This document shows positions 2,575 to 42,243 of a stretch of DNA of 57,084 bases, piece by piece. Numbering within the stretch: the first letter of the stretch is position 1; each line of letters starts with the position of its first letter. Made by a program: the position numbers and the translations under genes. The stretch spans positions 1 to 57,084 of the forward strand of contig JACPLG010000013.1 of assembly GCA_016186625.1 (NCBI GenBank), read 5' to 3'. Under the pieces are notes generated by a model. That model was not told the origin of the DNA. It made no database searches and saw nothing but the letters and a program-made list of their open reading frames with translations. Source of the DNA: Candidatus Levyibacteriota bacterium. GTDB lineage: Bacteria > Patescibacteriota > Microgenomatia > Levybacterales > UBA12049.

Positions 2575-3066
2575 ATGCCTACAATATCACAACTTACCAA
2601 AAAAGGAAGAAGAAGAAAGATTAAAAAGGTTCGAGTAACCGGACTCCGGCGTGCTTATAACGCAAAGGACCGAGTTTACAAAGAGTATAATTCTCCGCAA
2701 AAACGGGGCGTGGTTACTTTGGTTAAGACTATGACTCCCAGAAAACCTAATTCTGCTCTTCGAAAAGTAGCCAGAGTCAAATTATCAAATAGGACCGAAG
2801 TTACCGCCTACATCATGGGGGAAGGCCATAATCTTGCCGAGCACGGAATCGTTCTTGTTCGCGGTGGAAGAGTCAAGGATTTGGCAGGAGTAAAATATCA
2901 TATCGTGCGGGGAAAGTTTGACCTTGCCGGAGTAGCAGGAAGACAAAGCTCTAGAAGTAAATACGGAGCTAAAAAGGGCGGAGGAGGTGGAGTTCGTCCG
3001 TCTACACCAGTAACCCCGGCAGCAGCGGAAACTCCAGCACCTGCGGAAGGAGGGACTACAGCGTAA
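2575..3066 (+). CDS. rpsL: 30S ribosomal protein S12 with ~29-aa Gly/Pro/Ala/Thr C-terminal tail
   Basis: [13 protein letters not shown]..., [11 protein letters not shown], and [19 protein letters not shown] are present. An SD GGAAGGAA lies upstream. Confidence 0.95.
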
Positions 3067-3196
3067 TCAGTTATCAGTTTTCTGTTGTCGGTTATCAGCC
3101 GTCTGTTTGCCTGTTCTCAGTTTGTCAGTTTGATAAACCGAAAACCGATAGACTAGATTCCGAAAACTGAAAACCGAGAACAGATAACCGAAAAAT

Positions 3197-3766
3197 ATGA
3201 GAGGTGCAAAAGTAAGCAAAAAAAGAAAAGTACAAGAAGACGTAATCTATAATTCAAGGCTTGTTGCAAAGCTAATTAATAATATTATGAGGGACGGCAA
3301 GAAAACAGTAGCCCAGTCTTTGGTTTATGATACGTTTGACATTTTAGCCAAAAAAAGCCCTTCTACGAGTTCAACATCCGTTCGACCCGTTCGAGATTCT
3401 CAGGGCAAGCAAGCTCAGGATAAAGGCTCACTGCAAGCAGGCGCAGGGCAAGAGAGCCCATTATCTCTTTTTGAAAAAGCTGTTCAGAATGTGGGTCCAA
3501 GAACAGAAATAAAGGCTCGCCGTGTAGGAGGAGCTTCATATCAAATACCAATTGAAGTTAGGGGAGACCGCCGGACAGCTCTAGCACTCCGCTGGATAAT
3601 TGAAGCAGCAAGAGCTAAATCAAATAAGGATTTCCACACATTTCCGGAAAAATTGGCAGCAGAGATAGTGGATGCTTCCCAAAACCAAGGTGAAGCAATA
3701 AGAAAGCGTGACAATGTCCATAGAATGGCCGAAGCCAACAAAGCTTTCTCCCATTTCCGCATCTAA
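3197..3766 (+). CDS. rpsG: 30S ribosomal protein S7 carrying a ~32-aa internal insertion
   Basis: S7 blocks VIYNSRLVAKLINNIMRDGKK and RRVGGASYQIPIEVRGDRR are present. An inserted PSTSSTSVRPVRDSQGKQAQDKGSLQAGAGQES sits between them. Confidence 0.92.
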   Translation: MRGAKVSKKRKVQEDVIYNSRLVAKLINNIMRDGKKTVAQSLVYDTFDILAKKSPSTSSTSVRPVRDSQGKQAQDKGSLQAGAGQESPLSLFEKAVQNVGPRTEIKARRVGGASYQIPIEVRGDRRTALALRWIIEAARAKSNKDFHTFPEKLAAEIVDASQNQGEAIRKRDNVHRMAEANKAFSHFRI

Positions 3767-3772
3767 ATCCCC

Positions 3773-4102
3773 ATGAAAACCCTCTATGTTCGCAGTCGAA
3801 AACAATGGAGGGAGTGGCTGGAGAAAAATCATGATAAAGAGAAAGAGATTTGGCTTGTTTATTATCGAAAAACCAGCGGAAAACCTACTGTCTCCTATGA
3901 CGAATCTGTTGAAGAAGCCTTGTGTTTTGGCTGGATTGACAGCAAAGAAAAAAGTTTGGACTCGGAAAGATATGCCGGGCGCTTTACTCCCAGAAAACCT
4001 AAATCCAACTGGTCACCCTCAAATCGCGCCCGCGCCAAGCGTTTGATTGAATCGAAACAAATAACAGATGCCGGTCGCAAAGCTTTACCGAAAGACTTAT
4101 AA
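3773..4102 (+). CDS. YdeI/OmpD-associated family protein, N-terminal half only (apparently truncated)
   Basis: IWLVYYRKTSGKPTVSYDESVEEALCFGWIDS...RFTPRKPKSNWS is typical of the YdeI family. The usual C-terminal domain is missing. Confidence 0.6.
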   Translation: MKTLYVRSRKQWREWLEKNHDKEKEIWLVYYRKTSGKPTVSYDESVEEALCFGWIDSKEKSLDSERYAGRFTPRKPKSNWSPSNRARAKRLIESKQITDAGRKALPKDL

Positions 4103-4140
4103 CCGCAAAATCGGCACAATAATGTAGCTTCCCACATTCC

Positions 4141-4368
4141 ATGTGGGAACACAGATGTGGGGATAGAGGAATAGAAATTACAAAACCGCAAGATCGGAAG
4201 GAAGAAACAAAAATTATTCCTACTGCGCCACTTGAGTTTGATTTAAGCAATGGTGAACCACCTTCTCATGCTGACATTATTGCTGAGATTGAGAGAAACC
4301 AGAGGGAAATCTCTGAGCTGAGAGCTCAACAGGCTAGTGCTACAACCGAAACCCCATCCTCTAGCTAA
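4141..4368 (+). CDS. hypothetical protein (weak call)
   Basis: This is an ORF only. The start codon lies inside a 9-bp-stem hairpin, and an intrinsic terminator follows at 4396-4421. Confidence 0.3.
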   Translation: MWEHRCGDRGIEITKPQDRKEETKIIPTAPLEFDLSNGEPPSHADIIAEIERNQREISELRAQQASATTETPSSS

Positions 4369-14080: not shown

Positions 14081-14125
14081 TCGTTCGGCAAGCTCAAGTC
14101 GAGCTTCGCTCTTTGATTTTTTAGT

Positions 14126-21011: not shown

Positions 21012-21248
21012 ATGAAATTAAAAGAAATTATTGGAAAATCTGATAAAGAGTTAAAAGAGCTTCTTTCAGAGAAAAATGAAGAATTGATTAAACTTAAGCT
21101 TGATAACAAACTTAATAAGCTTAAAAATACAAGGTCAATTTTCAATGCTCGGAAGGAGATTGCAAGAATCTTAACCCTTATTAAGGAAAGAGAGTTAGCC
21201 CTTCGACAAGCTCAGGAAGAATCGCCAAAGGAGGAAAAAGAGTTATAG
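21012..21248 (+). CDS. rpmC: 50S ribosomal protein L29
   Basis: Size, position and the KELKELLSEKNEELIKLK pattern support the call. Confidence 0.85.
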   Translation: MKLKEIIGKSDKELKELLSEKNEELIKLKLDNKLNKLKNTRSIFNARKEIARILTLIKERELALRQAQEESPKEEKEL

Positions 21249-41834: not shown

Positions 41835-42243
41835 TTGCTGGGAAGAAGGTTTGCTACTCGCCTTAGGCGAGAGGAAAGTCCAGACAGCACAAAAGCAAGG
41901 GATGGAGCGTAAGCTCCAGCTAGAATCCTTCGATTGCACTCAGGATTTCCTGAGCCTGTCGAACGGAAAATAGCCGGTGTTCAGACTTTATACCGCTAAA
42001 CGAGTTTGAAACAGATTTTGAAATAACAAAATCTGAGAGCAACAGAGACGTGCGGGAGTGAAACGGGCAATCCCACCTGCTGTAACCTTCGACAGATGCG
42101 CTTCACCAGCTTTTGGGAAGTCGCGTAAAACGCGACAGGCATCAAAGAAGGGCATCCGCCTTAGGCGGGCAATGTGACCAAATATCACAACTGAGATAGA
42201 TTGCAGACTAAAACAGAATCTGGCTTACTAACTTCCCAGCATA
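41835..42243 (+). ncRNA. rnpB: RNase P RNA, bacterial type A
   Basis: GAGGAAAGTCCAGAC (CR-I) and ACAGAATCTGGCTTAC (CR-V) are present. The P1 pairing is GCTGGGAAG/CTTCCCAGC at 41837-45/42232-40. Confidence 0.9.

Follow-up and report, generated by a model that had tools for sequence, protein, structure and literature searches.

The gene for ribosomal protein uS7 (rpsG) of a Candidatus Levyibacteriota bacterium contains an extra in-frame block, which in our judgement very probably consists of copies of a tiny hairpin-type dispersed repeat that have been fixed, in frame, within a permissive loop of the protein, the added peptide being translated and tolerated.

An extra in-frame block in ribosomal protein S7

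The window analyzed here, i.e., the whole stretch of 57,084 nt, is contig C11 of the source genome (G000; 0.92 Mb, 16 contigs, 38% GC, estimated 92.5% complete). It has a GC fraction of 0.38 and carries rpoC, rpsL, rpsG, fusA, tuf, and large ribosomal protein operons. The two features of immediate interest are as follows.

3197..3766, + strand: rpsG, ribosomal protein uS7, 189 aa (Pfam PF00177, E 1.4e-54)
3356..3451, + strand: in-frame insert of 96 nt / 32 codons, residues S54-Q85 (alignment A1, GC 0.55, AlphaFold, nhmmer)

The rpsG product covered positions 5-148 of the 148 positions of the Ribosomal_S7 profile (PF00177) with 184 bits against a cut-off of 24, and a profile search of the genome revealed a single S7 match, the rpsG of the window. 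The invariant columns of the S7 alignment were kept on both sides of the insert, including G34, K35, K36 and R108, R109, G111, G112. In alignment A1, which comprised the window S7 and 23 S7 proteins from related genomes, the insert was delimited to S54-Q85, i.e., 32 residues located after ..DILAKK and before PLSLFEKA... The protein is therefore, as the initial annotation had claimed, a canonical S7 except for one extra in-frame block, and the span 3359-3454 that it gave is an equally valid register of the block at 3356-3451. Its statement that this DNA is richer in GC than rpsG was likewise correct (0.55 for the insert vs 0.41 for the remaining gene), and the 30-nt string that it quoted was located at 3390-3419. 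The encoded peptide is rich in Ser, Gly, Gln, and Ala. When S7 residues 40-100 were used as a query, the window's own protein alone was returned, out of 10 candidates, by a method that needs shared 5-residue words, which is at most a weak sign that the insert is unique.

It is extremely unlikely that the insert is an artefact of assembly or binning, i.e., a repeat-induced chimera in a metagenome-assembled genome. Such an origin would fit with the finding that the repeat core (3381-3421) alone was matched by further contigs of the same metagenomes, and with a probable local error in rpoC about 0.9 kb upstream. However, positions 3000-3900 of the window were spanned by one contig in each of 4 groundwater metagenome runs with 0 differences and 0 gaps, these runs being from one study that is possibly the source of this DNA, and their contigs having been assembled independently of the present assembly. 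Furthermore, a chimera would be unlikely to preserve the reading frame, to measure a multiple of three, and to be matched by diverged counterparts at this codon in five other species. The inserts found at this S7 site were 21, 69, and 96 nt long, every one of them a multiple of three and free of stop codons.

The dispersed repeat unit in the source genome

The initial annotation had proposed that the block is a copy of a dispersed repeat fixed in frame, and had suggested a genome search with the 96-nt segment. With the insert as an nhmmer query, the best match elsewhere in G000 was C5:15683-15750 (E 9.3e-6), followed by weaker matches on four contigs (C6, C2, C4, and C16), and the matching copies were both coding and non-coding. 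This similarity to other copies in the genome, together with the absence of the insert from 7 of the 13 congeners read, supports the proposal.

The repeat unit is 23-24 nt long and has the form CCC-TTCGACAAGCTCA-GGG-CAAG, in which a variable stem of 2-3 bp encloses a conserved 13-nt loop (TTCGACAAGCTCA) and is followed by a CAAG tail; its core 23-mer is CCCTTCGACAAGCTCAGGGCAAG. This 23-mer had 12 matches in G000 with up to 5 mismatches, and a 12-copy HMM gave 18 nhmmer matches with E <0.5 in G000 vs 1 in the block-shuffled genome. Among 20 copies from G000, the 13-nt loop was nearly invariant, whereas the flanking 2-3 bases varied and yet stayed paired, with stem pair 16-32 formed in 20/20, pair 15-33 in 12/20, and pair 17-31 in 10/20 copies. 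The covariation score was 0.255 vs 0.131 for shuffled copies and was reached by 0 of 500 shuffles, a value that refers to a stem of 2-3 bp and to copies that may share descent.

Besides rpsG, the unit was present in frame in other conserved genes of G000, coding for PurK-like, HMG-CoA-reductase-like, RadA, RecJ, and L29 proteins, and its copies in coding regions were all in sense orientation (7/7). The best match of the S7 insert, C5:15683-15750, is likewise an insertion that keeps the frame, here in a gene for a PurK-like ATP-grasp protein, where 23 residues replace 3 (net +20), and it was absent from all 12 congeners read. In the HMG-CoA-reductase-like gene (C15:72785-74002, locus L183), the in-frame unit reads ..IHSASSGQA.. 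and has on either side a copy of a direct repeat, about 12 nt long (KVQS..KVQS), possibly the trace of a target-site duplication. Further copies were located within the window.

14082..14101, + strand: weak unit copy directly 3' of tuf (nhmmer E 0.094)
21199..21221, + strand: unit copy in the C-terminal tail of L29 (rpmC), in frame, reading ..ALRQAQEE.. (nhmmer 21199-21217, E 0.002)
41925..41968, + strand: forward and reverse unit copies forming a long hairpin (nhmmer, sequence and fold)

The resemblance of the quoted 30-nt string to motifs after tuf and inside rpmC, noted in the initial annotation, is thus real, and both are weaker members of the family (E 0.094 and E 0.002, respectively). 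The copy after tuf is part of a hairpin that is followed by a T run, and two unit copies in G000 adjoin tRNA genes at their 3' ends. As for the copy in L29, a degenerate counterpart at the corresponding position was found in G011 only, among 14 congeners read. The hairpin at 41925-41968 lies where the RNase P RNA gene is expanded by 104 nt between the P8 and P10 regions, at the start of this expansion. The RNase P RNA itself, at 41838-42243 (+), was recognized by RF00010 with 55.5 bits (E 2e-16), which is below the cut-off of 100 bits, and its alignment contained the 104-nt insertion.

Proposed nested organization of the S7 insert

The S7 insert is not a clean copy of anything found elsewhere in the genome, as its best match is about 70 nt long with a modest score. 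It was therefore parsed against the unit, which gave the following elements, the half-copies being putative and in part degenerate.

3358..3365, + strand: putative outermost degenerate 5' half-copy, CCCTTCTA
3377..3385, + strand: putative 5' half-copy of a second, enclosing unit, TCCGTTCGA (pattern parse)
3386..3409, + strand: innermost full unit copy, CCCGTTCGAGATTCTCAGGGCAAG (4 mismatches to the 23-mer; nhmmer E 0.021)
3410..3421, + strand: putative 3' half-copy of the second unit, CAAGCTCAGGAT
3423..3452, + strand: two putative further 3' half-copies closing the outer units, AAGGCTCACTG.. and CAGGCGCAGGGCAAG

The GGAT of the 3' half CAAGCTCAGGAT pairs with ATCC at 3376-3379. The same A(AB)B layout was also observed around exact copies in loci of three other organisms (L031/L044, L097, and L121). 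Among the 129 exact copies listed in the search of other bacteria described below, a 5' half stood directly upstream in 7, a 3' half directly downstream in 8, and both in 5. Moreover, in the PurK insert and in two other G000 copies the centre of the unit loop was broken by a different small hairpin. Taken as a parse of the DNA, these patterns suggest that the S7 insert comprises three or four units nested in each other's loop centres (4 x 24 = 96 nt). This goes beyond the initial annotation in that the insert would be a nested composite of the 23-24-nt unit and not one copy of a long repeat.

Location of the insert in the protein

An AlphaFold model was calculated from a 24-row alignment (mean pLDDT 77). 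It contained helices at residues 21-30, 36-53, and 88-99, a hairpin at 103-120, and then three more helices, and placed the insert between helix 2 (36-53) and helix 3 (88-99). The flanking helices were modeled with confidence, whereas pLDDT was below 50 at residues 55-67 and 69-84, and the insert is accordingly predicted by the model to be disordered. Solved S7 chains matched the window S7 in two pieces (query residues 1-54 and 86-188), and the break corresponds to residues ~54-57 of Thermus S7, where helix 2 has ended and helix 3 is about to start. Mapping onto the S7 structure, another check that the initial annotation had recommended, hence located the insert in the loop joining these two helices, a loop that varies in both length and sequence among the relatives in alignment A1. 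Helix 2 starts at the conserved DGKK motif, and helix 3 runs into the beta-hairpin. Both the DGKK end of helix 2 and the beta-hairpin end of helix 3 are RNA-proximal in S7, and the joining loop should therefore point away from rRNA, so that the insert would be solvent-exposed. Since rpsG is the sole copy in the genome and the insert is open in frame, we infer that it is translated, presumably as an unstructured loop.

One solved chain, 9T0Z chain G (uS7, 191 residues), aligned with the window S7 as a single stretch across the insert region. The entry is the 30S subunit of Coxiella burnetii, as identified via PMC13392368. Judged from alignment coordinates only, the match points to about 35 additional residues in this loop of a ribosome whose structure has been solved. 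No discussion of the extra residues of Coxiella uS7 was found in the passages of PMC13392368 consulted, and a structure search with a 61-residue query for the Coxiella uS7 insert gave 0 matches.

The S7 site in related genomes

The S7 site was read in 13 congeners, of which seven had no insert and showed a short, ancestral-looking ..AKKEEPLSLF.. sequence, five had 6-7 extra residues, and one (G011) had 23. In two of the short-insert carriers, G010 and G014, it is the unit that codes for the extra residues, with 1 mismatch in the 21 nt added in G010 and 3 mismatches in G014. The extra residues of G002, G005, and G006 correspond to a decayed version of the unit, and the 23-residue insert of G011 contains unit fragments. 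Outside the genus, none of the 11 S7 proteins in alignment A1 had an insert at this site. In a class sample of 401 genomes, which takes in the unpublished genome G108, S7 was found in 388, and a one-piece match was obtained in G000 alone, the other 400 genomes yielding nothing similar to the insert. The initial annotation had held that a repeat origin would fail if close relatives shared the segment as a conserved lineage-specific S7 domain with no similarity to repeats. This was looked at, and it is not what we found, because the DNA is similar to other copies and the site is empty in 7 of the 13 congeners and outside the genus.

In a tree inferred from S12, the C-terminus of RpoC, and S7 with its loop removed, G011 formed the first branch and G000 the second, and the carriers of short inserts fell into two separate groups. 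Forcing all of them into one clade was rejected (p-AU 1e-9). Forcing G000 and G011 together was weakly rejected (AU p 0.027), a value to be read in the light of this group having been chosen after the tree was seen. The inserts of G000 and G011 aligned weakly (z 3.1; reached by 4 of 500 shuffles), and may go back to one shared old event or to two separate ones. As the insert that G011 has at the same site aligns weakly with that of G000, the latter may be an old one that has been kept, and a function is then conceivable.

G010 (L008) and G014 (L013), which are not sisters, have in common a unit-bearing allele of the S7 loop with changed flanks (..KALDIF..), while the remainder of the gene follows the species tree. 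To judge from these sequences, the loop looks like a short recombined patch that moves within the genus. The separation of the short-insert groups, for which a single clade was rejected, and the G010/G014 patch indicate that the S7 site received repeat DNA at least 2 times. This recurrence could reflect tolerance of the site instead of targeting.

We consider it quite unlikely that the block is a selected, lineage-specific functional extension of S7, contacting for instance a partner of the ribosome, with its likeness to the repeat telling only of its origin or being due to chance. In support of such a role, the early-branching G000 and G011 both have long inserts, the block of G000 is carried by a single essential rpsG, and the alignment of 9T0Z chain G through the same region indicates that long S7 loops can exist in working ribosomes. 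However, the inserts of G000 and G011 differ (32 vs 23 aa) and are barely alignable, more than half of the congeners read (7/13) have none, and the block is predicted to be disordered and has both the composition and the DNA of the repeat. We therefore favor the view that the insert is repeat DNA fixed in a permissive loop, and regard it as probably neutral.

The following course of events would account for these data. The units would have entered hairpin loops, their own loops included, giving rise to a nested composite; copies would have become fixed in frame in the loop joining helix 2 and helix 3 of S7; and the insert would be translated as an unstructured loop that is tolerated and not needed. 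As a guess, the unit may move as a single strand into hairpin loops by means of a trans-acting factor. If this is correct, selfish repeat DNA can be accommodated in frame even by a core ribosomal protein, and in a genome of 0.9 Mb, and the helix 2/helix 3 loop of S7 is a permissive site, perhaps useful for tagging.

Occurrence of the unit in other bacteria

The unit is not private to G000, which the initial annotation had not addressed; its exact sequence is present across many bacterial phyla. With up to 3 mismatches, the 23-mer was present in 34 of the 41 related genomes searched, with 1-21 copies per genome, and the reversed-pattern control in 0 of 41. In a species-genome collection of 596 Gb, the exact 23-mer occurred in at least 120 stretches, compared with a chance expectation of about 0.02. 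Hosts among the matches listed were Saccharibacteria, Parcubacteria, Microgenomates, Acidobacteriota, Chloroflexota, Planctomycetota, Bacteroidota, Cyanobacteria, Deinococcota, and Alphaproteobacteria, and the matches listed included cultured strains (L053, L065, L071, and L086). Eleven stretches with the exact 23-mer were viral contigs. In Alphaproteobacteria, an antisense and a sense copy around a spacer form a MITE-like element of about 100 nt.

These counts bear on the notion that the loop grew by slippage or low-complexity expansion and resembles the repeat only by virtue of GC-rich Ser/Gly/Gln coding. The insert does hold internal half-repeats, and low-complexity linkers are common, but an origin of this kind is very unlikely in view of (i) the nhmmer match (E 9e-6) to a copy on another contig, (ii) the 21 nt of G010 that equal the unit with one mismatch, and (iii) the frequency of the exact 23-mer in the 596-Gb collection, far above that expected by chance.

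In low-GC loci of other phyla, 22 exact copies were located deep inside ORFs of at least 150 aa, of which 15 read PSTSSGQ, 5 LRQAQGK, and 1 PFDKLRA, with 1 in antisense. The unit is open in five of six frames. All ten tested ORFs with an in-frame copy belonged to conserved families (GyrB, PNPase, AspRS, beta-CASP RNase, DnaJ, histidine kinase, PolX, transketolase, RmuC, and GSDH). The flanks of the 129 exact copies listed paired slightly more stably than shuffled ones (-8.3 vs -7.2 kcal; Wilcoxon p 0.002), and in 25 of these 129 the pairing was better than shuffled by at least 3 kcal, which means that a subset sits on hairpin tips and that this is not a rule. A link of the unit with tRNA genes was considered and dropped, as only 2 of the 129 exact copies listed were within 150 nt of a tRNA. 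An Rfam search of the window in gathering and E-value modes detected no family at the unit copies, the matches being tRNA-Pro and a sub-threshold RNase P RNA, and 15 loci from other phyla (114 kb) gave 0 matches in gathering mode. A search of the main text of papers for the DNA and peptide strings found no publication that describes the unit.

The element could instead act as RNA, the rpsG copy being selected because its hairpin binds a protein, because it is a signal for processing or stability, or because it makes translation of the str operon mRNA pause. Several observations point in this direction: a conserved loop is combined with stems that vary yet remain paired (the covariation given above); a hand count of related-genome copies found T1-A19 19 times vs T1-G19 3 times and A2-T18 in 8 of 8; the sense orientation prevails in coding copies of other phyla (21/22) as in those of G000 (7/7); and copies lie 3' of tuf and of two tRNA genes. 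However, no Rfam family matched, the stem is very short, proximity to tRNA genes is rare among the exact copies listed (2/129), and the RNase P RNA has both orientations. Moreover, one sense frame is favored (15/21), which shows strong peptide-level selection and could also explain the orientation bias. On balance, we regard selection for an RNA role in rpsG as quite unlikely, and retain the explanation by tolerated in-frame repeat copies.

A broader reading, which we hold tentatively and as possible rather than probable, is that the unit is an ultra-small element of 23-24 nt with the loop TTCGACAAGCTCA that occurs across phyla, multiplies by entering hairpin loops, and has repeatedly been fixed in essential genes. 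The sequence of such an element would be identical from candidate-phyla bacteria to Acidobacteriota, Chloroflexota, Cyanobacteria, and cultured sphingomonads, and its fixations in essential genes would comprise S7, L29, GyrB, PNPase, AspRS, and RNase P RNA. The shortness of the unit, the absence of stops in five of its six frames, and the linker-like peptide that it encodes might have made repeated fixation possible. If this reading is true, the copying factor would have to be conserved across bacteria or very widely transferred; in any case, identity over 23 nt across many phyla and inside essential genes has to be explained either by a copying factor of very wide distribution or by a function. 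If mobile, the unit would be among the smallest mobile units known and would generally supply bacterial proteins with short insertions in their loops, besides being a recurrent source of odd PSTSSGQA, LRQAQGK, and FDKLRA peptides in metagenomic protein sets.

Comparison with known repeats and search for a mobilizing enzyme

Judged from descriptions, the closest counterparts in size and behavior are the small dispersed repeats (SDR) of heterocyst-forming cyanobacteria, reportedly described by Elhai et al. in 2008 as 21-27 nt long, with hairpin potential, signs of mobility, and nesting. The present unit is similarly short (23-24 nt) and nests, with the A(AB)B layout in the S7 insert, L031, L044, and L121. 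However, SDRs were described in one cyanobacterial group, whereas the unit occurs across phyla. REP/REPIN elements, which are served by RAYT transposases, also are short extragenic palindromes in many copies, and G000 has four Y1_Tnp-like genes. REP elements have a conserved GTAG head; in contrast, the unit has none, its conserved part is the loop and not the stem, and the Y1-like genes of G000 are each flanked by a different hairpin of their own.

The in-frame location in conserved protein genes is shared with the Rickettsia palindromic elements (RPEs), which according to PMC10969869 are short non-autonomous hairpin repeats found in frame in unrelated conserved genes, the added peptide being judged compatible with the fold of the host protein. 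By analogy, the unit may be read as an RPE-like repeat in its behavior. RPEs measure about 100-150 bp, form around ten families, and are confined to Rickettsia, whereas the unit is about five times smaller, builds a nested composite in S7, and occurs in exact form across many phyla. MITEs such as QMITE1/2 of Coxiella burnetii are likewise non-autonomous and sometimes add residues by lying in frame in ORFs, as stated in PMC5896051. The inverted unit pairs of about 100 nt in Alphaproteobacteria resemble them; however, MITEs are 150-400 bp long and have terminal inverted repeats and target-site duplications, neither of which was visible at the S7 junctions.

Genes for Y1 transposases (RAYT-like, 219-236 aa) were located in G000 as follows.

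C8:1245-1505: Y1-transposase gene
C8:16627-16890: Y1-transposase gene
C16:112030-112260: Y1-transposase gene
C16:118792-119052: Y1-transposase gene

The hairpin repeats that bracket these genes on both sides are among the most over-represented 11-mers in G000. The Y1 family was found in 30 of the 41 related genomes, and its gene number correlated weakly with the unit copy number (rho 0.44, for 41 genomes that are kin and not independent); G030 and G040 had 8 and 5 unit copies, respectively, with no Y1 match. Y1 transposases may mobilize the unit in trans, but as each is bracketed by other repeats, their candidacy as its mobilizer is not supported. No mobilizing enzyme for the unit was found in G000, nor did ARAGORN detect a tmRNA in this genome.

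Other observations on the window and the source genome

Several features in the vicinity of rpsG deserve mention in their own right. At the end of rpoC (2270-2520), comparison with 11 relatives revealed that a conserved 14-residue segment (WLSAASFQETTKVL) is missing and that the frame is shifted; the ORF stops at 2327, and the conserved RpoC C-terminus goes on in a different frame. The cause is a local error of the assembly, which is the probable case, or else a real lesion in an essential gene. The 3' end of rpsL (2980-3066) encodes a C-terminal tail of S12 of about 28 residues that is rich in Gly, Pro, Ala, and Thr, with DNA of 60% GC, and a pattern search for S12 tails gave a match in G000 alone. 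The rpsL-rpsG spacer (3067-3192) contains many repeats of the AACCGAAAA and CAGTT types, and its parts 3067-3126 and 3136-3192 were matched by other contigs of the same metagenomes with 5-6 differences; on this sequence evidence, the spacer appears to be another repeat common to the community. The genes rpsG and fusA are neighbors in most bacteria, and here the gap between them (3773-4368) holds two extra ORFs, one of 109 aa, for which Pfam gave no match, and one of 75 aa. Finally, the most over-represented word of G000 is CCTGCCTGCCGGCAGGCAGG, a GC-rich palindromic repeat that is present at about 20 sites and is unrelated to the unit of the S7 insert.
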